IMG/VR virus record: IMGVR_UViG_3300020193_000003
Reading direction: 5' to 3' (one strand)
DNA length: 64,000 nt
Source of the DNA: a virus
In this document: one piece after another, positions 38,856-64,000 of the stretch
How the letters are laid out: the number at the start of each line of letters is the position of its first letter
How positions within the stretch are numbered: position 1 is the first letter of the stretch
Notes under the pieces: generated by a model
The model's database searches: none
What the model was told of the DNA's origin: nothing
What the model saw: only the letters and a program-made list of their open reading frames with translations
Program-made: the position numbers and the translations under genes

Positions 38856-38885
38856 GATCGGCTCCCAGCAATCGGGCTTCCCGGA

Positions 38886-39657: not shown

Positions 39658-40104
39658 CTACGCCTGGATGTTCAGCGGAACGGGTCCGCCCTGGATGGAG
39701 AAGGTCATGGCGTAGGTGGCCGGTGCCCCCGACGACGCGTCGCCGTCCGGCTCGGTGAGCCCGACGAGAAGGGCGTTGTTGTACTGCCTGTCGGCCTTCT
39801 GATCCTCGATGTCGCAGTTGACCTTGTGGATGTAGATGTTGTAGAAGATCCTGCCTATGTGCTGGCGGGCGACGTTCAGGTGCACCCTGTCCGCGTCGTC
39901 GTAGTGCCTGGTCAGCGTGATGTCCCCGACCTCGGATGGGGCGCAGAGGAGTTCCGGGAACTTGCCCCCGCCCACGTAGATCTTCTCCACGGCGGCCGTG
40001 ATCTCCCCGCCGGACACCTGGGCAAAGAAGTTCTGGAAGGCGGGGGCGATCGCTCCGACCGGCTCAAGCTTCGCCAGTATCTGTCGCTGCGTGTATTTTG
40101 CCAT
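39658..40104 (-). CDS. Tail tube protein
   Basis: FAQVSGGEI, GDITLTR, EPDGDASS; follows the sheath gene. Confidence 0.8.
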   Translation of the reverse strand: MAKYTQRQILAKLEPVGAIAPAFQNFFAQVSGGEITAAVEKIYVGGGKFPELLCAPSEVGDITLTRHYDDADRVHLNVARQHIGRIFYNIYIHKVNCDIEDQKADRQYNNALLVGLTEPDGDASSGAPATYAMTFSIQGGPVPLNIQA

Positions 40105-40119
40105 GGTTTAGTCCTCCGA

Positions 40120-41580
40120 CTAGGCTAGTGATGACGTGATGTTGGACTTGGAAATCTCGACCTCGATCGTCTCACCGATGGACGAGATCCTGACTCCGAC
40201 CCTCGCCTTGACCGTCCCGGTGGCGAGTTGAGTGACTGGGTTCAGCTGCGCGTTGACCGTGACCTTGTAGCCCGGGTCCAGCTGCTTGCCTGAGGCCAGG
40301 AACTTGGGGAACAGCGCGCCCGCCGTCGCCAGCGGGTCGAGGATGCCGTAGAGCACCGATTCCACCTCGGCGAACAACGATCCGCGGCCGTCGATGACGT
40401 TGAACACGAGTCGCTCCAGTCTCTCCTCGGCCTGCGAGGTGATGTAGTTCAGTATCTCCCTGGCCGTGATGAACCTGAAGTTTTCCGTGTCCGAGGATGC
40501 AGACCTCGCTCCGTAGATCCTGACGTCTCCGTTGATGACCCTGATCGGGTTCACGAAACCGTCGTTGAGCGTGTTGGATTCCGCCCCGGTGACCGTGTGG
40601 TACGTCCCGAGGGCGAAGGATGAGTTGGTCAGCGATCCGGCGTACGCCGTCCACGGGCCGAGCTCGTTGTGCAGCTTCGCCCTCTTCGCGGCGACGAAAC
40701 CCTCGCACGGGACGGAGAGGACGAGGCCGTTCCTCGTGATCTTGACCCACGGGTAGTACCAGGCGGCGTACTCGGCGCCCTCGTACTCGCTGTGATCGGC
40801 CGCTTCCTGCACCGATTCCGCAACGGTGTTCTCCCTGTCGAATCCGAGCAGGGCGACCCTGTGGGTGTCCACGGCGTGGTCGGTTAGCCCCTCCCAGATG
40901 GTCGTGCCATACAGACCGGGCAGGCAGACCGATCCGGTGCCGAGCGTGTTGGTGAATGCACCGAGCGCCGTCACGTATTGCGCCGAGGTTGGCGCACTAC
41001 CCGCGGCACCGCCCGAGAACGACACGCCGGCCGCCACGGCTGGAATTCCCGCCCCAGCGCCGACAGTCGCCGTCACGTAAAGCGAGGCCACAGCGCTGTT
41101 GTTGATCTCCTCGACCGCGTCTTCCTTGTTTGTCAGCACGGGGGTCGAATAGACGACCACGTCGTCAAGCAGGATCCTGACCCTGAAAGTCTGGCTGGCT
41201 GTCGGTTGCGTCACCTCGGCCTCGAGCTGGGTGTTGGCCCAGGTTCCCTCGCCCGATGCGGTGAGGGTAAGGACGGTTGCGGGCGTTGCGGCGGAGTTGT
41301 TCAAACTTGCCGTCGCGGCTGTCGCGCCTGTCCCGATTGCCCTAGAGACGTAGGCCCTTGAGCCACCCTCCTCGAAGAAGGTCTGGAGCGTCTGGTGGAC
41401 GTATCCACTAGATGTGTAGCCCCCGTAGATGTCCTCAAATTGATCGAGGCTCTGAACCAAGAACGCGGATCCCTCTGGTCCGCGGGTTGTCACACCGGCG
41501 ACGAAGAGCGTTGAAGTTGGCGAGACTGTCAGCGTTGACGGACCACTGACTACCGATGTCGTTAGGATTACTCCAGGCAT
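40120..41580 (-). CDS. Tail sheath protein
   Basis: MPGV, G.TTRGP, FFEEGG..AYV.R, YYPWV, VNPIR, YGAR, LVF. Confidence 0.92.
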   Translation of the reverse strand: MPGVILTTSVVSGPSTLTVSPTSTLFVAGVTTRGPEGSAFLVQSLDQFEDIYGGYTSSGYVHQTLQTFFEEGGSRAYVSRAIGTGATAATASLNNSAATPATVLTLTASGEGTWANTQLEAEVTQPTASQTFRVRILLDDVVVYSTPVLTNKEDAVEEINNSAVASLYVTATVGAGAGIPAVAAGVSFSGGAAGSAPTSAQYVTALGAFTNTLGTGSVCLPGLYGTTIWEGLTDHAVDTHRVALLGFDRENTVAESVQEAADHSEYEGAEYAAWYYPWVKITRNGLVLSVPCEGFVAAKRAKLHNELGPWTAYAGSLTNSSFALGTYHTVTGAESNTLNDGFVNPIRVINGDVRIYGARSASSDTENFRFITAREILNYITSQAEERLERLVFNVIDGRGSLFAEVESVLYGILDPLATAGALFPKFLASGKQLDPGYKVTVNAQLNPVTQLATGTVKARVGVRISSIGETIEVEISKSNITSSLA

Positions 41581-41659
41581 TTACGGTCCTCCGATGCGGG
41601 GGTTTTGTTCACTACGAATAATAGCATTCAGACTGCTTTATAGGTTACACGTTTTGAAA

Positions 41660-44735: not shown

Positions 44736-45296
44736 CTACCTGTCGGGGTTCGGTGGCCTCTCGAACTGGGGCCTCTCGTCGTGACTCGCCTCTATTGGGA
44801 TCCACGCCTTGGAGTACGAGTGCTCGGCGACCTTCCTCATTTTGACCAGCGACCCGTCCAGCAGGACCTGGAACTCGTCGGTGGTCATACCGAGGGTCAG
44901 CATCAGGGATTCCCTGCTGTGGGCGCCCGACTTGATTATGGTCCTGACCACGTGCGAGAGTCTTGCGTTCATGACCTGGCCCCTCGCCCTGTTCAGGGTG
45001 ACGTGCATGATCATTGCCTCGGTCTCGGACAGGTTCGGGAAAACGACGACGGGGACGAAGCGACCCTCGATCATGAGTTGCGGCGTCGCACTTGCGAGCG
45101 CGAGCCTCTCGTGACCGTCGACCACCAGAAGCCCCCCGTCCTCGGCCTTGCCGCATGCGACAATCGGGAAGATCCACCCGTACCTGTGCAGCGAAGTGGC
45201 CAGCAGGCTCAAATCGGGTTTGACTATGTAGGTGGCGCGCCACGGGGCGCTCCTCAGGACGCTCGGTTCCAGCTTCTCGTACCGACCCTCACTCAT
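44736..45296 (-). CDS. ParB/Srx-like nuclease-domain protein (IbrB-like)
   Basis: SL.RYGWIFPIV, VVDGHER, HVTLNRARG, YSKAW.P. Confidence 0.8.
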   Translation of the reverse strand: MSEGRYEKLEPSVLRSAPWRATYIVKPDLSLLATSLHRYGWIFPIVACGKAEDGGLLVVDGHERLALASATPQLMIEGRFVPVVVFPNLSETEAMIMHVTLNRARGQVMNARLSHVVRTIIKSGAHSRESLMLTLGMTTDEFQVLLDGSLVKMRKVAEHSYSKAWIPIEASHDERPQFERPPNPDR

Positions 45297-46419
45297 CGCT
45301 TTCCTCTGCGTTCTCCCTCTTCGCTATTCCGAAGGCTTTCGTGCCCGGTCCCATCGGCGTCGGGGAGGCGGCGGTGAACTCGTTCAGCAACAAGGTCCGA
45401 ATCAACCAGTGGATCGGGTAGCTCTTCGGGTCGTTTCGCATCTTCATCCTGAACTTCGCGCAGAACGCCTTTGCGTAGTGACGGTCCGACTCGCTCATCA
45501 TGTGATCGTCTATGCACGCCTTCACCCCGTCCCAACCGTAGCGGGCGTAGCCCATGATCAGCTTCTCGACGTCGTAGTCGGCCCACAGCCTCCGCTGGGC
45601 GTCGATCATCGGCCAAACCCTCTGCAGCTGGTCGAAGAAGAACGGTTCGGTGACCATGAGATCGCCCATCCTCCTCGCCGCCACGCAGTACAGGGGTATG
45701 CCGACCCTCGTGTTCGATCCGGTCATCGCGGCGACGTCGTAGTACTCGCAGTACTCCGCGCCGTGCTCCTCGGCGACGAACCTGAGCACGTCGTCGCTCG
45801 TCCAGTCGTAGATTATCTTCGCAAACCTCAGCGGGAGGTTCCTGGGCGCCTTGTACGGTGCGACGATGTAGTTCTCGTGAAGCTTCTGGACGAGGGACCT
45901 GTACCTGACCATGGATTCGTTCGCCCTCACGCCCGTCAGGAAGGCCGTCCTCCCCTTCTTGCCCTGCATGGTCCAATAGTCGGTGTCCCCCATATCCTTG
46001 TCCCTGCTTAGCCCGAACGATTCCGCGTTTATGGCGAATTTCGGCATCGGCCTGACGAGACGACCCTCCTTCTCCCTCAATCCGGACCAGGTCATCTCGG
46101 TCGTTCTCTTGCCCATTGACCACACCTCAACCCCGACGGAGAGGCAGTACCACTCCATCTCTACCCAGTCATAGTTCCTGACCTTCTCCACGAAATCTAT
46201 GACCATCGGACTGACCATCTCCTCGTCCCTGAATATCGCCCTGACGGGACCGAGACCGCGCTCCTCGTGCAACTCCTTGGCGAGGTGGAGCACGGCCGTC
46301 GAGTCCTTGCCCCCGGAGAACTGCACGCAGACCGTGTCGAACGTGTCGTAGACGTGCCTGATCCTCTTTCTCGCCGCGTCCACGCATGTCATGTCAAGGT
46401 AGAGGCGCTTGCGCGGCAT
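45289..46419 (-). CDS. PAPS-reductase/PP-loop family protein (IbrA/DndC-like)
   Basis: AARKRI..VYD.FD..CVQFSGGKDS, GVRANES..R, IYDW...DV; start reassigned to MPRKRLY. Confidence 0.85.
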   Translation of the reverse strand: MPRKRLYLDMTCVDAARKRIRHVYDTFDTVCVQFSGGKDSTAVLHLAKELHEERGLGPVRAIFRDEEMVSPMVIDFVEKVRNYDWVEMEWYCLSVGVEVWSMGKRTTEMTWSGLREKEGRLVRPMPKFAINAESFGLSRDKDMGDTDYWTMQGKKGRTAFLTGVRANESMVRYRSLVQKLHENYIVAPYKAPRNLPLRFAKIIYDWTSDDVLRFVAEEHGAEYCEYYDVAAMTGSNTRVGIPLYCVAARRMGDLMVTEPFFFDQLQRVWPMIDAQRRLWADYDVEKLIMGYARYGWDGVKACIDDHMMSESDRHYAKAFCAKFRMKMRNDPKSYPIHWLIRTLLLNEFTAASPTPMGPGTKAFGIAKRENAEESDE

Positions 46420-47216
46420 CAGAACTCCGCGTTCGTGCTTATGAAGTCGATCAGCTTGGATGCCGTGGTCTCGCCGACGTATGCGGGGTCGTTCCTCAGG
46501 TACCTGATGAAGTCGTACCATCTCTTTTGTTGCACGGCGTCGTCGAACACGAGCGTGTACTGCACTATCGCCCTCTCCCCGCCCCTGACGCCGACCGCCG
46601 TGCTTCCCCTCGTGATCGCCTCCTCCTTGTCAACCGAGTCCGTCGCGATGTAGTCGATTTCGTCATTTTCGTTTTTCGTCTCGACGATCCGTTCGTCGTC
46701 TGCGGTCTGGAACGGGTTGACTATCACCGCCGGCGTGTACCCGCCCCGGTTGTCGTTCCTTTCGTTGGTGATGATGTCCATGTTTATGGAGGCGACCTCG
46801 AACTCGTCCCAGCCGAGACCGAGAAGCAGGTCCGGATAGTCCGAGGAGATCTCCGATATGAGGTCGAGCACGACCTGCTGGTCGGTGTTTCCCAACTCCG
46901 TCGTCCTGTTGTCGGCGAGGGCGAACGCATGACCGCGACTTTCGTCGACGTCGTAAACGATCGCCGCCATTTTTTTCCATCCCAGCTTCTTGGCGGCGAT
47001 CAGCTGGTGATTGCCGGCTATCACCGAGTACTTTCCGTCCCCGGCGGGCATGACGACTATCGGCTTTATTTGTCCGAACTCCTTGTAGGAGGCGACGATT
47101 GACTCGATGTTGCCGATGCGTGGGTTCTTCTCCATCGGCCTGAGCAGGTCGATGCTGACGGCGAGCCCAGCGAGGGAGGGGTGGATGTTCCCGTCGTCGT
47201 TGTTTTCGTCGTTCAC
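46419..47216 (-). CDS. ParB N-terminal domain protein
   Basis: NPRIGN..SI..S..EFGQ.KPIVV, VIAGNH, ALADNRT. Confidence 0.85.
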   Translation of the reverse strand: MNDENNDDGNIHPSLAGLAVSIDLLRPMEKNPRIGNIESIVASYKEFGQIKPIVVMPAGDGKYSVIAGNHQLIAAKKLGWKKMAAIVYDVDESRGHAFALADNRTTELGNTDQQVVLDLISEISSDYPDLLLGLGWDEFEVASINMDIITNERNDNRGGYTPAVIVNPFQTADDERIVETKNENDEIDYIATDSVDKEEAITRGSTAVGVRGGERAIVQYTLVFDDAVQQKRWYDFIRYLRNDPAYVGETTASKLIDFISTNAEF

Positions 47217-51070: not shown

Positions 51071-52384
51071 TCACACGAGGATAGTGGCGGCTCTCCTAAA
51101 TGGCAAGCCCAAACCTGCCAGGAACATGTATGCGCCGACGGCGGAGTCAACCTGGTCGTCGTGAACTTTGGCCTCGGGAAAGGACGAGAACTCGTCAAGC
51201 CAGTCGGTCATCCAGGGCGCCCTGATGACCCTGACGTTCCCGTTGGCGGCGGCGGCGGAGAACGGTCTCGCCCTCGTCACCTTGTCCCCGGTGGACCTTA
51301 TTCCGATGAAGTCGTACCCCGGAACGACGTACCTTGAGTACTGGTCGACGAGCGCCTTGCCAGAGGAACCCGGCTCCTGCTCCATTCGCACGGACACGGC
51401 GGGCCCGTCCTCGGAGGCGGTTTGCGCGACCAGCTGCTCAACCTTGTCGCCCTTCACCCTCGCCCTCTTCACGTCGAGCACGTAGGCGACCCCGTCCTCG
51501 AAGAGCATGAGGGTTCCGACCGTCCAGTCCGGGTCGGGGTTCGATGCGCTCGGCTCGGTCGCGGCCAAGTCCCAAAACCTCACGGCCCTCGCCGTCGGGC
51601 CCATCTTGGGGACCTCGCTGGAGTCGATCACCACGAACGACGTCCTGTCGAACATCGTTCCGAGCGTCGTCGCCCACCAGTCGCCCTCCTCCAGCCTTCT
51701 CCTCTGGAGCGGGTCCAGCGAGGCGAGCGCTATCCGGTAGGACTCGACGTCGATGCCGGGGTTGTCCGTCAGCTTCGAGGGCACGAAGACCCTCCCCGAA
51801 TCCGTTCCCTCGACGATGAACCTCTGTCTCACCCAGTTGGGGGCGGGGTTGGAGGCCGCCCTCATCCTCAACGGCACCAGGGAGAGGGGGCCCGTCGACG
51901 GTCTCCTGAGGCGGGAGAACAGGTAGCGATAGTCGTTCTCCCTTATCTCGGTGGCCTCGTCCATGCCGATGAACTGGAACTCGGAGCCCTTGTACCTGAG
52001 GTAGTCGTTCTGGTTGTTGAGGTATCCGAACGATATTCTCGCCCCCGACGGGAAGGTGGCCACGTAGGTGTTGCTGTTCCAGTGCACGTTCTCGTGCACG
52101 GCTATCCAGCCACGGAACCTGTCCATGAGCGCCCCGGGCAACGCCAGGTCGGCGAAGGTGCGCCTGAACAGGATCGCCGAATAGCCGGGCACATCGAGGT
52201 ACTGCATGGCCGCCATGAGCAGGGCGGACGATTTTCCACCTCCCGCGGCGCCCCCGAAGAGGCCCTCAAGGCAGTTCGTCCTGAGAAAAACCTTCTGCGT
52301 CAACGAAGGCTCCTCTGGGCAAAACATGGGTTTTTTCGGCTGGAGCCACTCCAGCACCTTCTCCCAATCGACTTCTTCCATCAT
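51071..52384 (-). CDS. terL: Terminase large subunit
   Basis: GGAAGGGKS Walker A, FIGMDE Walker B, ASNP, WDLA, HDDQVD nuclease motifs. Confidence 0.93.
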   Translation of the reverse strand: MMEEVDWEKVLEWLQPKKPMFCPEEPSLTQKVFLRTNCLEGLFGGAAGGGKSSALLMAAMQYLDVPGYSAILFRRTFADLALPGALMDRFRGWIAVHENVHWNSNTYVATFPSGARISFGYLNNQNDYLRYKGSEFQFIGMDEATEIRENDYRYLFSRLRRPSTGPLSLVPLRMRAASNPAPNWVRQRFIVEGTDSGRVFVPSKLTDNPGIDVESYRIALASLDPLQRRRLEEGDWWATTLGTMFDRTSFVVIDSSEVPKMGPTARAVRFWDLAATEPSASNPDPDWTVGTLMLFEDGVAYVLDVKRARVKGDKVEQLVAQTASEDGPAVSVRMEQEPGSSGKALVDQYSRYVVPGYDFIGIRSTGDKVTRARPFSAAAANGNVRVIRAPWMTDWLDEFSSFPEAKVHDDQVDSAVGAYMFLAGLGLPFRRAATILV

Positions 52385-52638: not shown

Positions 52639-54858
52639 ATGGCGTGGAACTCCCGAACCAACAAGAACCTCGGAACTGACAGGACAAAGGCGCTGAATCC
52701 TGGCGCCCCGGTGGCCTACAACCCATCGCAGGTCGGCAGGCCGTACAGGGACTCGTGGGACATCGAGCGCGCATACCGCGAGGGATTCCAGAAGGTCACC
52801 TGGGTGAATCGTTGCATCGACGCGATTTCCGGGAACCAATCTCGCCTACCCATGATCCTGCGGGAGGACAACAACCCATCGGGGAGAGTGGTCAGGAAGA
52901 CGGACAGGAAGATACTGGACATCTTCAACACCAAGGCGAACATGGGGGAGAACTCGTTCGTGTTCCGCTACAGGTTGTCGTCGCAACTGCTCATGTCGTC
53001 GCGCGGGGCCTTCATCGAGAAGATCAGGGGGCGCGACGGCGAGCTGATCGCCCTCCAGTTGCTCCCACCCCAGCACACCGCCCCGATACCCGACCCGAAG
53101 AAGTTCGTGTCCGGCTTCGAGGTGGACATGCGCAACGGAACGAAGGTGACGCTAAAACCGGACGACGTGGTGTGGATCAGGAAGCCGCACCCCCTCGACC
53201 CGTACCTGTCGCTCACGCCAATGGAGTCCGCTGGCATAGCCATAGAGATAGAGAATCTCTCCAAGCTCTACAACAGGAACTTCCTGCTCAACGACGGTAG
53301 GCCGGGCGGCCTGCTGGTCGTCAGGGGCGAGATAGACGACGACGACAAGGACGAGTTGCGCAACCGGTTCAGGGGAAACGTCGCTAGGGCGGGGGCCGTG
53401 ACCGTGCTGTCCTCGGACGAGGGCGTCGACTTCGTGGACACCGGCCAAAGCCCGAGGGACGCAAACTACGTGCAGATGCGCCAGATACAGAAGGAGGAGA
53501 TTCTCGCCGCCTTCGGAGTCCCCGAGTCCGTGATCGGCAACGCCGCCGGCCGGACGTTCGCCAACGCCGCCGAGGAGCACAAGGTGTTCTGGAACGAGAC
53601 GATGCTCCCCCACCTCGAGACGATCGCGAGGGCCCTGGACGAACTGGACGACCAGTACTACATCGACTTCGACGTGACCGACGTGCCGGTCCTCGTTCTC
53701 TACAAGCAGGAGAGGGACAGGTACCTGATGACCGAGTACCAGACGGGTCTCATCAGCGGCAACGAGTACAGGGAGGGCGCAGGGCGCAAAGTGATCGACT
53801 CCGAGCTGATGAACGCCATGCTCGCCAACCCGAACCTAACCCCGATCGGCTACACGAACAAGAAGTTCGTGCAGCAGCAGATGGGCATCCCCGGCATGGG
53901 CGGGGCGCCACCGCCGGCCGGAATGCCTGGCGGACCGATGATTCCCGGCATGGGGCAAATGCCACCGGTTCCGGGCGCCCCGGCAGTCGAGGGGGTCGCA
54001 CCCGCCCCGCAGGAGGGCATGACGGCGGCGCTGCAGGCGGAGGAGGTCGCGGCAGCGCAAGCCGGGCAGATGGCGCAGGCGTCGGCGTTCGGTGACCAGG
54101 TGACGACGAAATCGCTGTGGGACGAATGGGACGAGAAGGCCGAGAACTCACTCGACAGGTGGACCGAGATACTGGACTCGTCCCTTGAGCGTTTCGTGGA
54201 GCGCCAGCAGAGGGTGATACTCGAGAAAGCCGCCGGCTCCAAATCGAGGAAGTCGCTGGAGGCGGGGAGCCTTGACTACGAGAGCATCTTCGACCAGAGG
54301 ATATGGGATAAGCAGCTGGCGGAGGACATGCGCCCGATCCTCAGCGGGATAATGAACGACGCCGCGACGCTCGTCTCCCAGGAGGTCGGAATGCAGGCCG
54401 AGATAGACGAGAAGGAGGCGGCGGAGCACCTAAAGGAACAGATCGAGAGATTCCAGCAGATGAACGCCACCACCGCCAAGGAAATAGAGGGTGCCGTGCT
54501 GATATCGCTCTCCCTCGGCGACGGCGAGGACAAGATGGGGATGCTGAAGGCCGCCCTGCTGGCGATATTCGTCAACCTGCTGTCCAAGCGGAAGAGGAGG
54601 ACGGCGGAGCACGAGTCCCACACCGCCTACAACGCCGGGGCGTTCTACGCAGGTCGCTCGGTCGGCGCAGCCACGAAAACCTGGGTATCGGAAAAAGACG
54701 CGAAGGTCAGGCCCGAGCACGCCGCCATGCACGGCGAGACGGTGCCGATTTACGAGCCGTTCGTCTTCGGCGGAAACTCCATCAGGTACCCGGGTGATCC
54801 GATGGCGGCGATCAACTTGACGATAAATTGCCGGTGCAAAGTGAGGTTCGGGTTCTGA
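52639..54858 (+). CDS. Portal protein fused to a MuF-like minor head domain
   Basis: HK97-type portal motifs (N.GRPGG, I.AAFGVP, N.YR); P/G/M-rich linker; C-terminal KTW....D.KVRPEH...HG...YPGDP...INCRC. Confidence 0.88.
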   Translation: MAWNSRTNKNLGTDRTKALNPGAPVAYNPSQVGRPYRDSWDIERAYREGFQKVTWVNRCIDAISGNQSRLPMILREDNNPSGRVVRKTDRKILDIFNTKANMGENSFVFRYRLSSQLLMSSRGAFIEKIRGRDGELIALQLLPPQHTAPIPDPKKFVSGFEVDMRNGTKVTLKPDDVVWIRKPHPLDPYLSLTPMESAGIAIEIENLSKLYNRNFLLNDGRPGGLLVVRGEIDDDDKDELRNRFRGNVARAGAVTVLSSDEGVDFVDTGQSPRDANYVQMRQIQKEEILAAFGVPESVIGNAAGRTFANAAEEHKVFWNETMLPHLETIARALDELDDQYYIDFDVTDVPVLVLYKQERDRYLMTEYQTGLISGNEYREGAGRKVIDSELMNAMLANPNLTPIGYTNKKFVQQQMGIPGMGGAPPPAGMPGGPMIPGMGQMPPVPGAPAVEGVAPAPQEGMTAALQAEEVAAAQAGQMAQASAFGDQVTTKSLWDEWDEKAENSLDRWTEILDSSLERFVERQQRVILEKAAGSKSRKSLEAGSLDYESIFDQRIWDKQLAEDMRPILSGIMNDAATLVSQEVGMQAEIDEKEAAEHLKEQIERFQQMNATTAKEIEGAVLISLSLGDGEDKMGMLKAALLAIFVNLLSKRKRRTAEHESHTAYNAGAFYAGRSVGAATKTWVSEKDAKVRPEHAAMHGETVPIYEPFVFGGNSIRYPGDPMAAINLTINCRCKVRFGF

Positions 54859-54944: not shown

Positions 54945-57900
54945 ATGACCAACCAGCAAACCTCCGACGATCTGGACTACCTCTACAAGTCTCTCAACGG
55001 TCAGATAAACGTCGATGAGGCGCAGGGCATAGTCGAGGCGTTCGTCGCCGGCGTCGGCAACAAGGACGCCGTGGGTGACATCTGTCTGCCGGGGTGCTTT
55101 ACCTCGTCCCTCAAGCGCAGGAAGCCTCGCGTCGTCTGGGGCCACGACTGGAACTCCCCGATCGGCAAGGTGCTCGAGATCTACGAGGTCGGGCCCAACG
55201 ACCCGCGCCTGCCGGCAAAGATGCGCAAGGCGGGCATAGGTGGCCTCTACGCAAGGGTGCAGTTCAACCTCAAGGCGGAGAAGGGCAGGGAGGCTTTCGC
55301 CAACGTGTCGTTCTTCGGCATGGAGCAGGAGTGGTCCATCGGGTACAAGACCCTGGACGCGGTGTTCGACCCGGTGCAGACCGCCAACCTCCTGAAGGAA
55401 GTGGAGCTCTACGAGGTGTCGCCGGTCTTGCACGGAGCGAACCAGCTGACGGGGACGATATCCATCAAGGCGGACGAGGCCGAAACGCAGACCAAGGAGG
55501 GGCAGGAAAAGGCGGGCAAGCCCGTCTTGCGCGACCCCAAGGGCGGACTCACGGCGGCCGGTCGGGCCCACTTCAAGCGCACCGAGGGCGCAAATCTGAA
55601 ACCGGGCGTGATGGGCGCGGCCGACACGCCGGAGAAAATGCGCAGGAAGGGTTCCTTCCTCACCCGCTTCTTCACCAATCCGAGCGGTCCGATGAAGAAG
55701 CCGAACGGCAAGCCCTCGAGGCTTGCCCTTTCGGCCGCGGCGTGGGGCGAGCCGGTGCCGCAGAACGCGTCCGACGCATCCGCGTTGGCGGCGAAGGGTC
55801 GTCGCCTGCTCGAGAGGTACGAGAACTCGAAGAAGAACAAGAAGAAGGACGACGCAGACTCGGTGGAGAACAAGAACTATGTCGCGGCCATCTACTCCGC
55901 CACGAGCGCGCAGCAGAACGAGACGTTCGGCAGGGCATCCGAGCTGACCAGGGCGTTGGCCGCGAGGTTCGGCGGCCCCGTGAGACTGGTGACGGCCGAC
56001 AACGACATAGCGGTGTTCGAGATGGGCGCTGGCGCGTCGGTGGAGACGATGAGGGTCGCGTACCACTACGACGGCGACGAGTTCATGTTCGGCACGGCTC
56101 AGCAGGTGAAGCCCGAGACCGTCTACATCCCGATCAACCAGACGACATCCGGCCAGACGGTCGGCGGGGTCACGACGGGAATAACCCCGAACGTCGGGCA
56201 CCACGCAGGCCACGTCGGTCACGAGGGACACTGCTGTCCTTCCTGCGGAAACGGCGGCAACTGCGACGCATCGGTGGCGCTCACGCGGGGCGAGAGTCCG
56301 AGGATCGCCTTCATGAAACTGAAGTCGCTCGGCGACCAGCTCAACTTTGAGGTCGTGCCGGTCAACGGAGGTTTCCTCCTGAAGGGGTTCGGGTTCCTTT
56401 CCGTCGAGGCGCAGAACTTCGTCGTCAACAAGATAGAGCAGGGAATGAGCCGGAAGTTCGTGAACCCGACGGGGATGGCCATGCGCAGGGGTCTCGGCGT
56501 TCCGAACATAGGTGGTGCCGTGCGCGGTTTCAACGTCGACATGAACCCGTTCACCGCGAGGGACGCCGACCTGGACAAGCTGGTGCTCGAGGGCAACCCG
56601 CTCGTCAACATGGGCCGCGGAGTGCCGGACCCGACGCCGTTCGGGATCCCGGATGGGCCGCGCTTCGGTGATCCGAACATTCCGAGGGTTTCCGACAGAA
56701 TGAATCAAAGACGCCCGCTGATGATGCCGGCGGTGCCCGAGCCGACCGAGGTCCCGGAACCAGCCAAGGAACCAAAGCCGGTGACGGAACCGTCGCCGTT
56801 CGTGCCCAAGCCGAACAGGCCCCCGACCCCAGTTCCGCAACCGGAACCGGAGACGGAGCCGGTCGTGCCCGTTCCCGTGCCCGAGCCGGAGAGAGAGCCG
56901 GTCCCGGTGCGTCCGCAACCAATCAGGCCGACGGTGCCCGTGCGCCCCCTCGTTCCGACTGGCAGGAGGCGTATTCCAAAGAGGTTGGCGGAGGACTTGG
57001 CGCGAGCAGATTCGTTCGACCGCCCGAGCAGGCAGACGAGGCAGCGTCGCCTCAGGGACCAGGGAATCGACGAAATGCGGAGACTGATGCTCCTCGACGG
57101 ACCGGAAGCTGGAATGAGCAACCAGGACTCTCGCCCATTCGTCGGGCGGACGGACATCGAGTCCCGGGAACGGGAATTCTACGAATTGATGCTGGACGAA
57201 CGAAGGGCCGACGACGCACGCACGACTGGCGACACGAGCGTTCTGCGTCCCCGAATACTCGACGATATTTTGGAATATCTCGGAGACGAGAACGAAGACG
57301 ATCCGGATTACGTCCCGTCTGCCGATGAGATCGCCTCTTTGGCGCAGGAATTGGCAGAGGAGGCAGTCGAAAAATTCATAAACGAGGATTATTACGTTGG
57401 CGGCTCGTCCAGCAACCCTGTGTACAGGGGAAGGAACAACAGGGACCTGTGGCCCAGGCGCGACGAAATCTTCAGGAAATTCAGCGGAGGCGACGGGGAA
57501 GCCGGAATGAGCAGAGGCGGAGGCGGCCCCGACGAATTGGCCGACAGATTCCGTCAGGCTCGAGAGGAGAGAGAGCAGCCCGGCAGCAGAGGTCTTGACG
57601 ACGATACGTCGGCAATGTTTAGACAGGCTGAGGATTCTTTGCGCGGAAGTTTCCGTCCGAAGACCAACGAAGTTGATAGGTACGAGTACAGCGACCGAGA
57701 CAACATCAATGCCATGCGGTCGCAGGCCGAAATAATGAGGACGGACTACAACGACGAAGAAGCCGCCCAACTCTTTGAGCAGGCCGCGGACATCCTTGAA
57801 GATCGACTCGCAATGCCCAAGGACGGCGAAATCGTAGACGACGGTACCGAAGTGGAGCGCGAGCTGCTTGAGGCGGAGCGGATTGGGCTTGCGAACTTGT

Positions 57901-60900
57901 CGGCACGACGCGAGAAGATGCGGGATTCCGGGATGTCTCCGGATTATTCGGTCAGATCCCCGAGCTGGCGCGGTCAGGGTGAATTCTGGCTTGACACCTC
58001 GACGGGGAGAATCTTTTACAGGGACTCCACTGACTTCGAGGATGGGGACGGTTTTGACGGGGAATTCGTGGACATAGCGGGGGTGCAGTCGCAAGACGCC
58101 GATTGGATCCGCGAGAGTCTGCTCGCCAATTGGGACTCAATAGGTTTCAACGCCCGGGGCGACTTCGTCTACAGGGGCGTCGACTTCGGGCAGGCGATGG
58201 ATCCCAACGACCCGCCACCGCCGCTTGACAATCGCGGGGAGTTGATACCGAACCAGGAAGTGGTCATATTCAGCGCGGAGCAAATCGCCTCCAGGCCCAG
58301 GACCAGGGACGACGACATCGTCGACGGGGAGATCGTCGACGGGGATGCCGGAATGGCCGGTCCGAACAGGAACAGACGCCGTGGACGCGCCGTGAGAATC
58401 GATTCCGAAGAAACGCTCGAGGAAGTTTTCAGGAGAAGAAGGAACGGGGAAGACATCTCGGACATGATGGAGGACATTGACCTGCCGAATCCGGGAGACC
58501 GTGCCATCACGGACCCACCCCCGGGTGCGGACGCCGGAATGGCCGGTCGTGCCAGGACCAGGGAGGAGAACGCGGACCTGGGGAGAAGGATCTGGTTGGC
58601 AAGGACCCACGACAAGCTGTCGTTGGACGAGGCCGGCCGCCGCTTCAGGACGTCCAGGCAGAGGGCCAGGCAGCTTGAGCTACTCCATCACAAGTACCTG
58701 CGCAACCTTGGTCAGTACCACGCAAACAGGCTCGCACGGGCGATGGTCGACGACCCGATGACCGGTCTCACCGACGCCGAGGCGGATCTGCTCAGGCGAC
58801 GTCTCGACGGCGAATTGCTCGAGGAGGCGGCTGAGCGACTGAGGACGGACAGGTTCGCCATCAGGCGCATGGAGCAGCTCGCCCTCGCCAAGCTGAGGAA
58901 CAGGATGATCGATGATGGTCCGTCGGGTGCGATGGCCCCCAGTCGTGGAGGCAGGGCGGTGGACGCCGCCCGCCCAAAAGCACCAGGGGCCGAAAGGCCC
59001 GGAAGCCGAAGAAGAAGAAACGCAGTTGATCCGAGTTTCATAGAGATCCTCGACTCGCTGAAGGAGTCGGGCGAGGACGGCCTGACCAACGCGCAGAGAG
59101 TGCGACTGGCGGCCCTGATGCGATTCCGTCGTGTGATCAGCAACAAGATAGACCAGTTGATGGTCGGCGGGTCGCGTCGTCGCCGCCTGTCCGCCGTCGC
59201 CCCGGAGGTCGACCAGCTCAACAAGTCCATGCGCGGCCCGTTCTCTTCGCTGGCCGAGGCCGCGAAGATAACCACGGGCAGTCCGAGGGATTTTGTCTCC
59301 TCCGCCATCAAGGTTGCGAACGGTGAGCAGGATCCGCTCGACATTGACGGACCGATAAACGTCCAGGTATTCGAGGCATTGCGGGCCACGAACGACGATT
59401 TCGCCGCTGTCGCCAGGAGCCTGGGCATGGACGAGGAGGTCGTTCGCCTGCGAGCCGCGGCCCACACGTTGAGGTTGCTCGCCTCGGCGATGCCAGTCAG
59501 GATGGGGGTGCACAGGCGCCTGGAGAGCAGCGGTGACGCTCTGACGTCGATTGAGCGTTACATCGTTAGGGCGTGGCTGAACGGAGCATCGGACCTTGAC
59601 ATTGCCGAGAGGATGGGAGACGGATTCGACGCGGCGCGCGTCGGCGCCACGAAGGTGACGGCGCTCACGAAGCTTCGGGTAGACGTGAACTCACCGGAGA
59701 TGCGCAGCAGGGTGGTCGACGGGAGGATCTTCTACGACGAGTTCGGTCTGTTCGTCGAGCTGACCGACGACGCCGGGGTCACTACCTACAACAGGATCGG
59801 CGACGGGCCGATGAGCATGATGGACGACGACGCATCCGGGGGTATGTCGGCCCCCAAGCGCAGGGTCGTGTTTGCGGACTTCGGCGACGGGGGCAGGGAA
59901 TACGTGGTCACGAGGACAGTCCAGAGGGACAGGGCGAACCCGAGCATGGAGTCAGTGATGATGATGCCGGTAAGGGGCGACGACCAGGCGACGGTGTCTA
60001 CGCTCATCGGCAGGCAGCTGTTGGGCGACGATCGCGGGGCGAACCTCGAGTTCCCGGCGATTCTTTTGAAATCGGACGGAAGGATCACTGGCGTGGCCGA
60101 CCTCTCCGGCAACGCGGTTCGCTTCTACGGGTCGCGCGTCATCAACGGATCCACCCCTCGCGTCGCCGAGAGGGTTGACGCGATAAGGGCCAACGACTCG
60201 GCGGCAAGGACGAAGATGGACCAGGACGTCGAGGGCGCCGAGAGGAGGCTGAGGGGTCTCATGAGGGCGCTGGACCACCTGATTAGCACGGGCGACTGGA
60301 TCGGAGGCGATGCGAACGTCACCGGGAGGGTCCCCGAATACGCGACCATGATGAGGTACGGACTCGACTCCGACGACGACGGGACGCCGATCACTCCGCG
60401 CAACAGGACCAAGGAGCAGTTTGAGCTGGACGAGGCGGAGTTCTTCCTGTCCAGGTACCCGAACGCTTCCGATGACAGGGTGGAGCAGCACGTCCAGCAA
60501 GCCACGTCGGACAGACTCGCCCAGGTGAGCAGGAAGGTCGATATCGCAAAGAAAGAGCTCGACAGGCTCCAGCACGTCCGGGACTCCAAGGAGGTCAGGC
60601 GCTCCCAGAACGTCGTTGACCTCGAGACGCTTGACGACGAGACGGCGAGGATGCTCGCCGACGAAACCAGATTCCTTGCGTCCATGTCCGGGCAGGATTA
60701 CGACGCCGCCGGCGTGTCGAAGGGCGCTGACGGTTTCGCTTACGTGGTCCACAAGGGACCGGACAGGCTCTCGGGCGGCGTGCTTGACCCTCGCATGTCG
60801 GCGGGCGTCGCGGGCCGCGCCGGGTCGGTGGCCGGGCAGGGCGACACGAGGGGGGCGAACAGGACCTACGTAGCGAGGTTCCTGCAGTCTGCGGAGGCGA

Positions 60901-63900
60901 AGTCCGACATGGTCAGGCACTCGTCCGACCTCGCCGCGAGGATCGCCCGAGGCGAGGCGGTCGTCACCGCACACCCGTCGATACGTGGGGCGTTGAGGGC
61001 GCAATCCCAGCTCCTGTCGAGGGCATTCGGCGAAGGCGGAGTGCTGAACATGGAGAACTTCGACGAGGCGCGCGTCGCCGCGATCGTCGCGGATGTCAAC
61101 AGGTTCGTCGACGCCCAGAAACGCGACCTCCAGCGCTACCAGAAGATAAGGGATTCGTTGACGAAGTTCGGCGGGAGGGACATGGATCAAATGCTGTCCG
61201 CCGAGTCGGACGCCACGCGTGCGGTCGGTTCCCTTAACTTCTACGGAAGGTACGCCGATTTTGACCTGCCCCGCGACATCGTCAGCTTCTCGCCGGGGTT
61301 CACGGACGGGCTCACGAGAAGGTGGACCCCCGTGGACGAAACGATGCTCGACCGGTGGGAGTTGACGGGCTCGCTGCGCGGCGGGGCGTTCTTGGCGGCG
61401 GGCAGGCTGGACGCGGAGATAGTCAGGGGCGGGCTGCTCGGACCGAGCGGCGAGTCGCAGATAATAGCCCCACTCAAGCCCCTGATCGGAATTTCGACGC
61501 CGGTCAGGATCACGGACGACGTTGCGCCGAGCGACCCGAAGTTCCTGGTGCAGAGCCTCGGCCCGGCCCTGATGGCTAGGGCCATAAAGATGCACAAGCG
61601 CGACGGGTTCGTGGACATTGAGACCGTCCTGACGGACCCGGACTTGGCACCGCAGGGTTACGTCGCGCGAACCGGGGACGCCGAGGCCGGCATGGCCGCG
61701 CTGGAACCGCGCAGGCCGATCCTTGACGAGCGCGGAAGGCTCGACCCGGTTTTGACGCGCGACGAAGCATACCTGGACGACAGGGAGGAGAGGGGTCTGC
61801 CAGATGGACCGATGCAGAGACTCCTCGTCCCGCAGACTCCGTCCACGTTCATCGAGGCCCCTCCTGGTGACCTCACGCCCGAGACGAGGAGGGCTCCGTG
61901 GGCGATCGGGTACACGAGTTCGGAGGCGGACATCGCCATTGGACTGGACGAGGATTACCCGGAACGACTGGTTCACGTCGTGGCACCCTCGGCGTTGCCG
62001 CCAGACAACGCGAAATTCCCCGTGAGCGAGTCGGGCCCGCATCTGATGCTCGACCGGGAACCGCTGGACTTCCTGGTTCACGTGTTGAACGACATCAACC
62101 GCATGACGGTGGAGGAGAGGGAAGCCTCGGAGAGATCGCTCTCGGACAGGGGCTTCGAGATCGAAAGATCGGAGTTCGACCCCCCGGACGATTTCACCCC
62201 GAGAGAACGTCACCCGACCTACCTGGTCGTCGACATCAGGGGCGAGCCGCAACTTCAGGGTCCCACCGGAACCGGGACCACGAGAATCATCAGGGTCAGG
62301 GAAATCCTGAGGTTCAGACTGTCAAGCCAGGCCGACGAATCCCAGCCCGGCGGAGGACCGTTCTGGAGGCGAATCGACCCCGAGGCGGTCGCGAGAGGGG
62401 AACCTGGGAGAACCACGACCGAAAGCTTGGGGTACATGGACTTCGTGATAGACGTCGACCCAACCTACGACGGAGACCTCCTTGACGGCGAGAGAGAGGT
62501 GAGGATAAAACCGGAGAGCATCATCGGGAGAATAGTCTCCGCCGAGGAGTTGTCCGTCAGCTCCCATGTGACGAGGCAGATCTACCAAGGGGACGGCGTT
62601 CGCTTCATGAGGTACCCGCGCCCCTACGGTCGCTCCGGCGGCGACGCAGAGGCAGGGATGGCACTCGCTCCCCGTACGGCCGATCTGGTCGCAAGGACGG
62701 AGAAGTACTTCCCGTCGGACGACAGGAACGACTGGCTGATCCCAGAGTCCGTCATGCCGGACAGGGAACAGGCGGAGCTCCTCGGCCTGCTCCGCGACGC
62801 GCTCGGCGGCAAGGGGCTGACGCTGGGAGGAGAGCAGAGGTGGCGGATGCTCCTGCTCAAGGCTGAGTCCCTCCGTCGCGTGCAAAGCCTGAGGGGCGAG
62901 CTGCCGCACGAAAGGGACGAGATCGGCGTCTCGATGTACGACACGTTCGCGGCCGACACCGACACGGGATACGGGCAGCTCATTCCGTTCGTGGAACCAG
63001 GGACGACGACGCACATTCGTTACGACAAGAGCGGGAACCCAGTCGAGTACATCCCGGTCAGGATCGGCAGGAGCATCGCCGACGCCGCAACGTTCGAGTA
63101 CCACCCCGCGTCTCAGGTCAAGTACGCACTCATTCTCTCTGGCAGGCAGCTTAGGACCTGGAACCACCCCGAGGGAACTGCTCCGGGGGTTTCGCGGCGA
63201 GTAGCGAGCTGGGACGACGAGGGAGTCGAGCTCGACGTCCTCAGCGAGGAGATCCGCTTCCAGGCCTCGCGCACGAGGCAGATGGACGAACTTCTCGGCT
63301 TCACCGGCGACTCTCCGCAGAAAATAATCTTCGCTCTCCGCCGAGCGGCCAGCGACAAATCACCCAGACTCAGGGACAGGTTCGTGTACGACCCCTACGG
63401 ATACGTCGTTCTGTCCGACGCGCCGTGGAGGGAGGAGGACAGCGTCGTCGCCCTGCGCAGGTCCGAGAACTTCGCCGACCTGCAGAGACTGATCGCCGGC
63501 ATAAAGAAGGACGAAAAGTCGGTCAAGGTGACGCAGGTCGTCGGCTACAAGCCCGGCTCAAAGACGAGACCGTCGCTGGTCGACCGGGTCATCCGCTCGC
63601 CCAGGGTGGTCAGCGGCGTGGTGGACGAGATCACGGGGGAGTTCGTGCTCGACGGCAACGGAACCCCGCACGTCGTCGGGTACCTGCCCGACGGATCACC
63701 GATAGCCGTCGAGATCTCCGACTTGGTATACGACCGCGTCTCGCCGAGGCGAGCCGACGACGAATTCTCGCCGTCGAGGAACCGCGCTCCAGGCGGGGAT
63801 GCGGAAGCGGGGATGTCCTCCCCAACGAAGTCCAACCTCTACAACTACATAAGAATGCGGCTGAGGGGCGATGGCGACGACCAGGACAGGGATTACATCG

Positions 63901-64000
63901 AGATATCCAACCTGCCTGGCACCGCGAGGGCGAGGGACGGCGGGGCGTTCGACACGAGCCCGGCGGGAATAATAAGGAGGATCGTCGCCGCGGTCCGCAA
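54945..64000 (+). CDS. Giant prohead protease-led multi-module protein (>=3018 aa, 3'-truncated); putative polyprotein
   Basis: ATG at 54945. No in-frame stop found on reading, and the ORF track lists no terminated ORF in this frame. N-terminal VVWGHDW..PIG, EWSIGY, ELYEVSPV..GAN (HK97-type protease); recurring [DE]AGM[SA]. Confidence 0.9.
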   Translation, partial: MTNQQTSDDLDYLYKSLNGQINVDEAQGIVEAFVAGVGNKDAVGDICLPGCFTSSLKRRKPRVVWGHDWNSPIGKVLEIYEVGPNDPRLPAKMRKAGIGGLYARVQFNLKAEKGREAFANVSFFGMEQEWSIGYKTLDAVFDPVQTANLLKEVELYEVSPVLHGANQLTGTISIKADEAETQTKEGQEKAGKPVLRDPKGGLTAAGRAHFKRTEGANLKPGVMGAADTPEKMRRKGSFLTRFFTNPSGPMKKPNGKPSRLALSAAAWGEPVPQNASDASALAAKGRRLLERYENSKKNKKKDDADSVENKNYVAAIYSATSAQQNETFGRASELTRALAARFGGPVRLVTADNDIAVFEMGAGASVETMRVAYHYDGDEFMFGTAQQVKPETVYIPINQTTSGQTVGGVTTGITPNVGHHAGHVGHEGHCCPSCGNGGNCDASVALTRGESPRIAFMKLKSLGDQLNFEVVPVNGGFLLKGFGFLSVEAQNFVVNKIEQGMSRKFVNPTGMAMRRGLGVPNIGGAVRGFNVDMNPFTARDADLDKLVLEGNPLVNMGRGVPDPTPFGIPDGPRFGDPNIPRVSDRMNQRRPLMMPAVPEPTEVPEPAKEPKPVTEPSPFVPKPNRPPTPVPQPEPETEPVVPVPVPEPEREPVPVRPQPIRPTVPVRPLVPTGRRRIPKRLAEDLARADSFDRPSRQTRQRRLRDQGIDEMRRLMLLDGPEAGMSNQDSRPFVGRTDIESREREFYELMLDERRADDARTTGDTSVLRPRILDDILEYLGDENEDDPDYVPSADEIASLAQELAEEAVEKFINEDYYVGGSSSNPVYRGRNNRDLWPRRDEIFRKFSGGDGEAGMSRGGGGPDELADRFRQAREEREQPGSRGLDDDTSAMFRQAEDSLRGSFRPKTNEVDRYEYSDRDNINAMRSQAEIMRTDYNDEEAAQLFEQAADILEDRLAMPKDGEIVDDGTEVERELLEAERIGLANLSARREKMRDSGMSPDYSVRSPSWRGQGEFWLDTSTGRIFYRDSTDFEDGDGFDGEFVDIAGVQSQDADWIRESLLANWDSIGFNARGDFVYRGVDFGQAMDPNDPPPPLDNRGELIPNQEVVIFSAEQIASRPRTRDDDIVDGEIVDGDAGMAGPNRNRRRGRAVRIDSEETLEEVFRRRRNGEDISDMMEDIDLPNPGDRAITDPPPGADAGMAGRARTREENADLGRRIWLARTHDKLSLDEAGRRFRTSRQRARQLELLHHKYLRNLGQYHANRLARAMVDDPMTGLTDAEADLLRRRLDGELLEEAAERLRTDRFAIRRMEQLALAKLRNRMIDDGPSGAMAPSRGGRAVDAARPKAPGAERPGSRRRRNAVDPSFIEILDSLKESGEDGLTNAQRVRLAALMRFRRVISNKIDQLMVGGSRRRRLSAVAPEVDQLNKSMRGPFSSLAEAAKITTGSPRDFVSSAIKVANGEQDPLDIDGPINVQVFEALRATNDDFAAVARSLGMDEEVVRLRAAAHTLRLLASAMPVRMGVHRRLESSGDALTSIERYIVRAWLNGASDLDIAERMGDGFDAARVGATKVTALTKLRVDVNSPEMRSRVVDGRIFYDEFGLFVELTDDAGVTTYNRIGDGPMSMMDDDASGGMSAPKRRVVFADFGDGGREYVVTRTVQRDRANPSMESVMMMPVRGDDQATVSTLIGRQLLGDDRGANLEFPAILLKSDGRITGVADLSGNAVRFYGSRVINGSTPRVAERVDAIRANDSAARTKMDQDVEGAERRLRGLMRALDHLISTGDWIGGDANVTGRVPEYATMMRYGLDSDDDGTPITPRNRTKEQFELDEAEFFLSRYPNASDDRVEQHVQQATSDRLAQVSRKVDIAKKELDRLQHVRDSKEVRRSQNVVDLETLDDETARMLADETRFLASMSGQDYDAAGVSKGADGFAYVVHKGPDRLSGGVLDPRMSAGVAGRAGSVAGQGDTRGANRTYVARFLQSAEAKSDMVRHSSDLAARIARGEAVVTAHPSIRGALRAQSQLLSRAFGEGGVLNMENFDEARVAAIVADVNRFVDAQKRDLQRYQKIRDSLTKFGGRDMDQMLSAESDATRAVGSLNFYGRYADFDLPRDIVSFSPGFTDGLTRRWTPVDETMLDRWELTGSLRGGAFLAAGRLDAEIVRGGLLGPSGESQIIAPLKPLIGISTPVRITDDVAPSDPKFLVQSLGPALMARAIKMHKRDGFVDIETVLTDPDLAPQGYVARTGDAEAGMAALEPRRPILDERGRLDPVLTRDEAYLDDREERGLPDGPMQRLLVPQTPSTFIEAPPGDLTPETRRAPWAIGYTSSEADIAIGLDEDYPERLVHVVAPSALPPDNAKFPVSESGPHLMLDREPLDFLVHVLNDINRMTVEEREASERSLSDRGFEIERSEFDPPDDFTPRERHPTYLVVDIRGEPQLQGPTGTGTTRIIRVREILRFRLSSQADESQPGGGPFWRRIDPEAVARGEPGRTTTESLGYMDFVIDVDPTYDGDLLDGEREVRIKPESIIGRIVSAEELSVSSHVTRQIYQGDGVRFMRYPRPYGRSGGDAEAGMALAPRTADLVARTEKYFPSDDRNDWLIPESVMPDREQAELLGLLRDALGGKGLTLGGEQRWRMLLLKAESLRRVQSLRGELPHERDEIGVSMYDTFAADTDTGYGQLIPFVEPGTTTHIRYDKSGNPVEYIPVRIGRSIADAATFEYHPASQVKYALILSGRQLRTWNHPEGTAPGVSRRVASWDDEGVELDVLSEEIRFQASRTRQMDELLGFTGDSPQKIIFALRRAASDKSPRLRDRFVYDPYGYVVLSDAPWREEDSVVALRRSENFADLQRLIAGIKKDEKSVKVTQVVGYKPGSKTRPSLVDRVIRSPRVVSGVVDEITGEFVLDGNGTPHVVGYLPDGSPIAVEISDLVYDRVSPRRADDEFSPSRNRAPGGDAEAGMSSPTKSNLYNYIRMRLRGDGDDQDRDYIEISNLPGTARARDGGAFDTSPAGIIRRIVAAVR

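Follow-up and report, generated by a model that had tools for sequence, protein, structure and literature searches.

A recurrent linker motif in a protease-headed giant reading frame of a contractile-tailed phage: a candidate processed polyprotein

The giant reading frame and its linkers

The DNA analysed here is a 64,000-nucleotide (nt) stretch from a virus (IMG/VR record IMGVR_UViG_3300020193_000003), called the window below. It comes from a contractile-tailed phage and has a tail sheath gene as a landmark at 40120-41580 (minus strand). The gene for the large terminase subunit (51071-52384, minus strand) diverges from one of 739 amino acids (aa) in which a portal protein is fused to a MuF-like head-morphogenesis protein (52639..54858, plus strand; portal in PHROGs, 7.7e-99; head-morphogenesis families at aa 494-737). 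This portal-MuF gene ends 86 nt upstream of the element considered here, an open reading frame (ORF) on the plus strand that is stop-free from position 54945 to the last base of the window (54945..64000; 3,018 aa in 54945..63998), its 3' end open. All features of this giant ORF given below are on the plus strand. A first-pass annotation, made from the letters of the window, had described a frame of at least 3,018 aa that starts with an HK97-family prohead protease, and both statements held. The remainder was recovered: in the phage's own genome the full-length product (P0003) has 5,106 aa and is found on four contigs, the longest of 142 kb. In an IMG/VR relative with approximately 95% nucleotide identity to the window (G001), the orthologue, named A, is an uninterrupted ORF of 5,467 aa, and other lineages also carry protease-first giants, 3,190 to 5,154 aa long. 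Several independent contigs and lineages thus carry the ORF intact, which makes an assembly error unlikely, and an artefactual origin was rejected.

The protease domain, Peptidase_S78 (prohead serine protease), occupies aa 25-179 (55017..55481; Pfam PF04586, 41.3 bits against a cut-off of 21), and a PHROG search of the region returned a head maturation protease (8e-27). It is the only domain with cultured relatives, sharing 38-42% identity with annotated actinophage capsid maturation proteases. Three residues, H67 (in VVWGHDW), S131 (in EWSIGY) and H163, are invariant in an alignment of the domain from 18 relatives; we take the first two to be the equivalents of the catalytic His and Ser of HK97, by family membership rather than by structural superposition. 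Used as a query, the protease identified more than 568 related IMG/VR loci. It is followed by a DUF6321 domain (55530..55745, aa 196-267; Pfam, 3.5e-27). Other searches gave little: megablast of the giant ORF against 50,697 phage records produced zero matches, a PDB sequence search with the protease profile found no match, and Pfam detected only weak Sigma70_r4 and weak RNase_T similarities beyond S78 and DUF6321. A DEDD exonuclease is present in P0003 beyond the window end.

Past DUF6321 comes the heptapeptide NPTGMAM (56463..56483), the lineage form of a site, NP-x-[ST]-G-R-M-[GA], that is conserved in the protease ORFs of linker-bearing relatives; from its sequence, it is a candidate self-release site of the protease. 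It lies just before a 32-aa element, box X (NPFTARDADLDxLVLEGxxxxNxGRGVPDPTP; 56544..56639), identified by DNA matches. By BLAST and alignment, box X also occurs in other G001 proteins, in or near their N-terminal regions: D (aa 15-119, L010), J (aa 106-191, L015), F (aa 42-148) and H (aa 231-281; both L012). It is repeated inside some protease-first giants (P0005, P0007, P0008 and P0009). Such a distribution may point to a role in head targeting or docking. Leaders just before box X carry a further short sequence, K-[AS]-L-G-x-T-I-G-G, found in G001 in B at aa 109 (L009:17687-19462), D at aa 15 (L010:3658-11028) and J at aa 106 (L015:892-16644), with KLKSLG at 56316-56333 as the window's version. 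Enrichment of K[AS]LG-type sequences is modest (10 copies on the coding strand versus 1 on the other).

A Pro/Glu/Val-rich spacer, recognised in the translation (56727..56963), precedes the first of a series of linkers that share the motif [DE]AGM[SAGT]. Seven strict copies occur in the window: LLDGPEAGMS (linker 1; 57090..57119, Met at aa 724, ATG at 57114), SGGDGEAGMS (linker 2; 57483..57512, Met 855, ATG 57507), VDGDAGMA (58335..58358, Met 1137, ATG 58353), PPGADAGMA (58518..58544, Met 1199, ATG 58539), TGDAEAGMA (61671..61697, Met 2250, ATG 61692), GGDAEAGMA (62637..62663, Met 2572, ATG 62658) and GGDAEAGMS (63792..63818, Met 2957, ATG 63813). These Met codons are exactly those listed in the first-pass annotation, and its looser copies, EQGMS, DSGMS, DGPSGAMA and DASGGMS, were also found in their places. 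The last three belong to EKMRDSGMS (57912..57938, Met 997; RDAGMS in G001), the weakest of the sites, DDGPSGAMA (58911..58937, Met 1330) and DDDASGGMS (59823..59849, Met 1634).

The seven strict copies compare with none in the other five frames of the 64-kb window and with a mean of 0.03 (maximum 2) in shuffled versions of the protein. The relative G001 has 27 copies (0.18 in shuffles), which are coding-strand without exception and confined to four giants: A itself with 11, D (2,457 aa) with 5, E (2,968 aa) with 3 and J (5,251 aa) with 8. None is present in the portal of G001 or in its proteins B, C, F and I, and proteins G and H have one off-pattern copy each (EAGMV and EAAMR). When aligned, the 27 copies yield the consensus G-G-D-[AG]-E-A-G-M-[SATG], conserved from position -7 to +1 relative to the Met, with no conservation beyond; A-G-M is invariant and Glu is found at -3 in 26 of the 27. 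The sequence is G/D/P-rich upstream and Arg-rich downstream, as had been noted at first pass. Codons within the motif follow the background usage of the ORFs: GAG is used in 18 of 26 cases, compared with 70% overall, and GCC/GCG and GGN behave likewise. Conservation therefore acts on the peptide and not on the DNA, as the first reading of the varied codons had suggested, and a DNA repeat or recombination signal was rejected on the same grounds. Asymmetry ending at +1 is what would be expected of a protease site read mainly on its non-prime side.

Modules, exchange points and linker variants

The linkers lie in sequence of low predicted order. In the 12 residues on each side of the motif, the fraction of order-promoting residues is 0.177, versus 0.248 +/- 0.016 for random sites and below all 5,000 random site sets; disorder-promoting residues make up 0.69 of these flanks versus 0.56. 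Two portions of the protein were modelled with AlphaFold. Within aa 700-1345, five of the six motif Mets fall in stretches with a predicted local distance difference test score (pLDDT) below 50, between folded units. Within aa 1590-2300, there is a confident core at aa 1739-2239 (60159..61661; pLDDT 80-90), and both flanking motifs are in stretches below pLDDT 45; TGDAEAGMA comes straight after this core. Local values are approximately 32 at linker 1, 38 at linker 2, 36 at DDGPSGAMA and 25-29 at DDDASGGMS. Overall, seven of the eight modelled sites have a pLDDT below 50 beside cores at 80-90, so that the motifs mostly fall outside folded domains. Low-confidence residues make up 32% and 42% of the two models, and a rough binomial estimate, taking that fraction as about 0.4, puts the chance of seven in eight at approximately 1%, which is not overwhelming.

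The segments delimited by the linkers behave as modules that are inserted, deleted and swapped among relatives, the full protein comprising about 16 of them. The module sizes given in the first-pass annotation were reproduced, but its statement that all are unrelated in sequence did not stand, as some consist of repeats ('IIFTAEQL' units in G001). An extra module of 124 aa in G001 is inserted exactly between two DGPEAGM copies, at linker 1, and two repeat units form another insertion, closed by a loose ATGMT. Against L019/P0005, homology is interrupted at aa 726, 1130 and 2252, each a motif site; the second break is at VDGDAGMA, and TGDAEAGMA is a breakpoint in several relatives. When all relatives were considered, 30 of 107 internal ends of high-scoring segment pairs fell within 15 aa of a site, compared with 9.7 on average and at most 22 in 5,000 random trials. 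Module swapping at motif boundaries, which the first-pass annotation had named as a check, is seen in the relatives.

Two of the modules illustrate this organisation. PPGADAGMA opens a widely shared module with two helix-turn-helix (HTH) units of the sigma-70 region-4/LuxR type (58542..58904, aa 1200-1320; pLDDT 81-91). The assignment is tentative by score: Sigma70_r4 reaches 18.7-24 bits in Pfam, at or below the cut-off, and the local Foldseek matches to region 4 of SigF and SigD and to DosR have probabilities of 0.95-0.97 with E values above 0.1. Homologues of the 616-aa module, which contains the aa 1739-2239 core, occur in 28 cluster representatives, where they occupy varied places in other giants. 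Fold searches with this module (Foldseek against the PDB, and VIA wide) gave nothing informative, the best hit being a helical hairpin with Z 6.5. They lent no support to an ADP-ribosyltransferase identity, which such a negative does not disprove. Its homologues are bracketed, on one or both sides, by the linker variant of the protein that hosts them: VSGKM, ISGKM, LTGRM, LTGAM, GPSAGM, SLSSG, RLSSG or FSSG. Thus, the linker goes with the host genome and the module can travel.

Linker variants were sought without a prior motif, as over-represented 5-mers with one wildcard allowed. Different lineages yielded GP[VI]GxM (L022, L024 and the complete 174-kb relative G002), GPTASM (L023), ISG[RQK]M (L026 and the complete 138-kb relative G003; 17 copies versus 0.1 expected, P = 4e-32), LSGxM (L043 and L045), ISGxM (L048), VSGKM (L064, P0017 and P0026), [IV]TGAM (L041), DTG[RKA]M (P0009; 13 copies) and GL[TS]GA[M/L/I] (P0016, P0019 and P0030). 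The stronger cases have P values between 1e-9 and 1e-32. Common to the variants is a core in which -2 is small (G or A), -1 is unrestricted and Met is followed by a small residue, and the A-G-M-[SAGT] of the window fits this [GA]-x-M-small pattern.

Other modules were seen next to linkers. Beyond the window, aa 3312-3467 of P0003 form another module of wide distribution, about 155 aa long (…PRYPRKPxYG…), which starts straight after a linker in P0011, P0012, P0022, P0024, P0025 and P0032. Sister giants contain many HTH domains as well as NUDIX and Zeta_toxin domains and HExxH motifs. Giant J of G001 (70892-86647; L015:892-16644) ends in a NUDIX domain (8e-10) and a Zeta_toxin kinase (6e-18), each delimited by linkers. 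A sister lineage (L068, L070, L073, L085, L087, L092 and G004) has the S78 protease and no G-x-M linkers; its large ORF, which starts near 16,250, has two or three copies of an 'L-[VI]-G-D-Y-x-P' repeat instead.

Candidate processing and its alternatives

The punctuation is conserved as peptide, occurs family-wide, lies in exposed linkers at exchange points and is shared in trans by other giants of the same genome. Linker exposure, boundary position and use in trans are features expected of polyprotein processing sites, and the linkers are probably the cleavage sites of some phage protease. In the scheme that we favour, the S78 protease at the N terminus is followed by DUF6321, box X and about 16 independently folding, exchangeable modules, among them sigma-4-like HTH pairs, a DEDD exonuclease and many unknown folds. 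Acting inside the procapsid, the protease would cut the G-D-[AG]-E-A-G-M-[SAGT] linkers in cis in the giant ORF and in trans in three further giants, with a small residue at P3, any residue at P2, Met at P1 and a small residue at P1'. A few genes would in this way yield about 40 separate proteins, and the fragments so released would remain within the head and be delivered to the host along with the DNA. We infer the cleavage, the enzyme, the scissile bond, the packaging and the injection, the last two from gene position and domain content alone.

Placement of the cut after Met follows an analogy. Proteases of the assemblin fold, to which S78 belongs, recognise P3-x-P1 sequences, namely [VL]-x-A↓S in herpesviruses, [LI]-x-E↓ in T4 and [SAG]-x-E↓ in phiKZ (the arrow marks the scissile bond); a linker read in the same way, as [GA]-x-M↓[SAGT], would have Met at P1. 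The first-pass annotation had proposed a cut after Glu or Asp, or between Gly and Met. Cleavage after the acidic residue is now disfavoured: Glu and Asp are confined to this lineage and Met plus a small residue is common across lineages. Cleavage after Glu was rejected in view of the variants GPVGxM, ISGRM, VSGKM, LSGAM and DTGRM, none of which contains Glu. That the enzyme is S78, cutting after Met, falls a little short of an even chance in our estimate. Structure prediction of a complex between the S78 domain and a 51-aa linker segment scored 0.01 and counts neither way.

A number of observations weigh against this scheme. The S78 domain is 74-95% identical among lineages whose linkers differ upstream of the Met; protease-substrate co-evolution is therefore not evident. 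Relative G004 (92% complete) has the S78 protease and no such linkers, and in linker-less relatives of its lineage the protease ORFs are without the NP..G.M site. Distant giants are punctuated by [SRKF]-L-S-S-G, which has no Met. A search for the linker at the N-terminal end of G, the putative capsid protein, was negative, as it was in B and C, both scaffold-like. The K[AS]LG boxes resemble the K↓SLG site of HK97 and, by this likeness, may be a second, classical S78 site. A zincin-like HExxH module is present wherever linkers were found and the sequence reached far enough. Finally, DSGMS is the one modelled loose site outside low-confidence sequence, lying at a helix end with a pLDDT of approximately 70. 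With these points included, the complete explanation, that of a head-module polyvalent polyprotein processed by S78, is in our view evenly balanced between right and wrong.

The zincin-like module is the basis of a different assignment. The linkers might be cut by the HExxH metallopeptidase of neighbouring giants, before Met (a hydrophobic P1' and a small P2'), with S78 limited to classical head maturation, perhaps at K↓[SA]LG-like sites; we consider this a serious contender, though rather unlikely. In all linker-bearing relatives with enough sequence to cover it, the first giant after C has, between aa 400 and 500, a conserved box of the form 'HY.A.HE.GH..HF......GFD' (aa 478 of the ORF at L026:14160, and equivalent ORFs in L041, L043, L045, L048, L058, L059 and L064). 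HExxH also occurs in E (aa 695), F (aa 450) and D (aa 2287) of G001 and one to three times in most of the giants that would be cut in trans. The type of zincin follows the class of linker, HE.GH..HF going with G-x-M and KHEI.H or HEWGHWLHF with LSSG, and G004 lacks the zincin giant together with the linkers and retains S78. Thermolysin-like zincins have a hydrophobic S1' pocket, which the occasional Leu or Ile at the Met position of P0016 would fit. Protein C, with its PepSY-like repeats, is encoded between the S78 gene and the zincin giant and might restrain the zincin. Zincin-like MPTases had been predicted as processors of polyvalent proteins (Iyer et al. 2017; PMC5512222).

Several points tell against a zincin. 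That zincin and linker occur together is a confounded observation, the zincin being one of the giants' own modules. The giant ORF and J have many linkers and no HExxH, so the zincin would need to act in trans, and the zincin giant of G002 is without any of that genome's linkers. Pfam finds no metallopeptidase family in these proteins, the assignment resting on HExxH and its conserved context, and Atlas leads for the F region (LPD, zinc-protease) are below 0.8. To our knowledge, processing by a zincin has yet to be demonstrated for any polyvalent protein that contains one. As Pfam detects no family, the HExxH box may represent an undescribed metallopeptidase family of polyvalent proteins.

That the linkers are left uncut, as conserved flexible joints of beads-on-a-string proteins, is improbable. 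The motif would then bind the capsid interior, DNA or a chaperone, or serve as an exchange-tolerant junction like the VENN of CdiA. Module exchange does occur at the motifs, and the residues upstream of the Met are uniform within a genome and differ between genomes despite a near-constant S78. Large proteins can also be packaged intact, as exemplified by the virion RNA polymerase of N4, 3,500 aa long and uncut (quoted in PMC5512222). Against passive joints, an 8-residue motif over 27 linkers is far more constrained than such a role requires, and an asymmetry that stops at +1 is a usual mark of protease sites. The gene block also encodes proteases of two classes, and codons not conserved beyond background make a DNA-level recombination signal unlikely.

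Least of all can the linker Mets be internal translation starts, or relics of genes fused by stop-codon loss, a very improbable explanation to which Met plus a small residue, resembling a natural N terminus, and a Shine-Dalgarno (SD)-like GAGG placed 5 nt before the ATG by GAG-GCN-GGN-ATG (18 of 27 copies) lend some colour, but in which GAG at the motif is at background (18 of 26, against 70%), the upstream residues are conserved as amino acids and the products would be nested and C-coterminal rather than separate modules. Internal starts were rejected on the linkers without an SD-like sequence (ISGRM, VSGKM and GPVGxM), the replacement of Met by Leu or Ile in some lineages and the Met-less LSSG.

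Several known systems resemble this arrangement. Polyvalent proteins, surveyed in 2017 by Iyer, Burroughs, Anand, de Souza and Aravind (PMC5512222), are huge multidomain proteins of phages and conjugative elements with shuffled effector-like domains (HTH, nucleases, NUDIX, kinases, HExxH peptidase motifs), encoded near structural genes and predicted to be co-transferred with the DNA; processing by embedded peptidases was predicted and the analogy with RNA-virus polyproteins drawn. Like them, the giant ORF combines many unrelated domains in architectures that vary between relatives. In that survey, however, assemblin-like peptidases are seldom seen and lie 'always at the C termini', whereas here the peptidase is N-terminal, and no recurrent linker or cleavage motif was reported, whereas here a lineage motif punctuates several giants per genome (PMC5512222). 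The giants studied here reach 5,467 aa, and the giant ORF has no match to the polyvalent MPTase/LPD Pfam families.

The proteases gp21 of T4, gp175 of phiKZ and gp245 of SPN3US have the assemblin fold, recognise short P3-x-P1 motifs and act on packaged or ejected substrates. Those of the T4/phiKZ type cut after Glu ([LI]xE, [SAG]xE); in the linkers, D-[AG]-E stands at -5 to -3, and P3 would be Asp. They are also not fused to cargo, as S78 is here. In SPN3US, every mapped cut except self-cleavage takes off an N-terminal propeptide rather than splitting a protein into many functional modules (PMC10052503).

In gp4 of HK97, the giant ORF has a counterpart of the same Pfam family, with the catalytic His and Ser conserved and the gene directly after the portal. 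HK97 gp4 is a small protein that cuts the delta domain from the capsid protein at K↓SLG; here, the domain heads a protein of 5,106 aa with a candidate site of the [GA]-x-M-small type. Polyproteins of positive-strand RNA viruses, such as those with picornavirus 3C sites, likewise consist of one ORF with an embedded protease and a junction site used in cis and in trans; the present case is a DNA phage with unrelated proteases and domains and with presumed virion cargo rather than replication proteins, and its evidence comes from sequences and models. In CdiA (VENN) and Rhs proteins (PxxxxDPxGL), a short peptide marks the point of module exchange, as the linker does here, but those proteins have one motif before one C-terminal toxin, compared with up to about 16 per protein and many kinds of module in the giants. 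Literature searches on the motif, on DUF6321 and on giant phage proteins that begin with a protease turned up no description. Already known were the polyvalent concept with predicted peptidase processing (2017) and the cutting of internal and ejection proteins at short motifs by head proteases; new are an explicit, lineage-specific punctuation code common to several giants of a genome, the N-terminal position of a head protease, and a scale of more than 16,000 aa per genome.

More generally, it is about as plausible as not that a large, mostly uncultured family of tailed phages loads its virions with tens of effectors encoded in a handful of giant polyproteins, which total more than 16,000 aa per genome and are cut by a phage protease at a lineage-specific code. 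The code would be [GA]-x-M↓small, or LSSG in distant lineages, the enzyme S78 or an embedded zincin, and the code would double as a standard joint for swapping effector modules between phages. If cut, the linkers would give phage polyvalent proteins their first readable processing code. Giant 'dark' ORFs could be split in silico, into about 16 products for this gene and about 40 per genome, with hundreds of module families over the more than 568 related metagenomic loci. Release of polyvalent proteins would become a testable claim, with defined substrates and two candidate enzymes. Cutting would also explain how very large cargo leaves through the tail, as small pieces, provide a standard joint for shuffling anti-host modules and make these phages a DNA counterpart of RNA-virus polyprotein processing. 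A short, portable, orthogonal pair of protease and site would be a useful tool. Uncut, the motif still marks domain boundaries in proteins that otherwise defy annotation.

Gene neighbourhood of the giants

After the portal, the gene order in G001 is A (the S78 giant), B, C, D, E, F, G, H, I, J. A core order of portal, S78 ORF, C and G is kept across the family with giants inside that block, which places them within the head-morphogenesis block. All linker-bearing ORFs of G002 and G003 are clustered directly after the portal and S78 genes. Protein G (about 700 aa; G001 61819-63912, L012:5819-7909) is found in all lineages with 30-36% identity, at the position expected of the major capsid protein (homologues at L068:14140, L070:14226, L083:13885, L087:14143 and L080:15908). 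An Atlas feature search with G gave weak kinase-like neighbours (0.86-0.90). Pfam and PHROGs had no matches to neighbours B, C, F, G, H and I, nor did PDB sequence searches with proteins G, I and F.

Most of protein B (592 aa; G001 37687-39465, L009:17687-19462) is made up of a repeat unit of about 37 aa in tandem (…SLNPGQRGARPDTSNQRAEDARNQGKRPAGRPVDRLPGAGGP…), disordered and basic in appearance; a scaffold-like or DNA-condensing role is possible. Protein C (G001 39671-41647, L010:1671-3644), with homologues in all relatives, has an N-terminal Cys-rich Zn-ribbon and a long acidic tract. It also has two repeats that look PepSY-like by eye, with no Pfam hit, and a duplicated 'SYPI..DL.NAI.A.GRAKDK' unit. 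The conserved part of C starts at a junction, R-R-L-x-[ST]-M-G-[FYV]-K, which is also present in lineages without zincin giants; its [ST]-M-G is a weak hint that S78 accepts Met.

A giant of 2,057 aa punctuated by LSSG (P0025), with RNase_T and HEWGHWLHF, is encoded on an 89-kb contig (L097; JGI 3300042881). Its neighbours are WhiB, ribonucleotide reductase, ThyX and SSB genes, with no head module, so punctuated giants are not always head-linked. The WhiB contig and the actinophage relatives of the protease are hints of an actinobacterial host. Elsewhere in the window, a PAPS-reductase-like gene lies at 45289-46521 (minus strand; PHROG, 3e-71), and ORFs with 2-oxoglutarate-Fe(II) (2OG-Fe(II)) oxygenase-like regions at 6175-7584 and 9339-10385 (both minus strand). 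These genes are candidates for auxiliary or DNA-modification functions.

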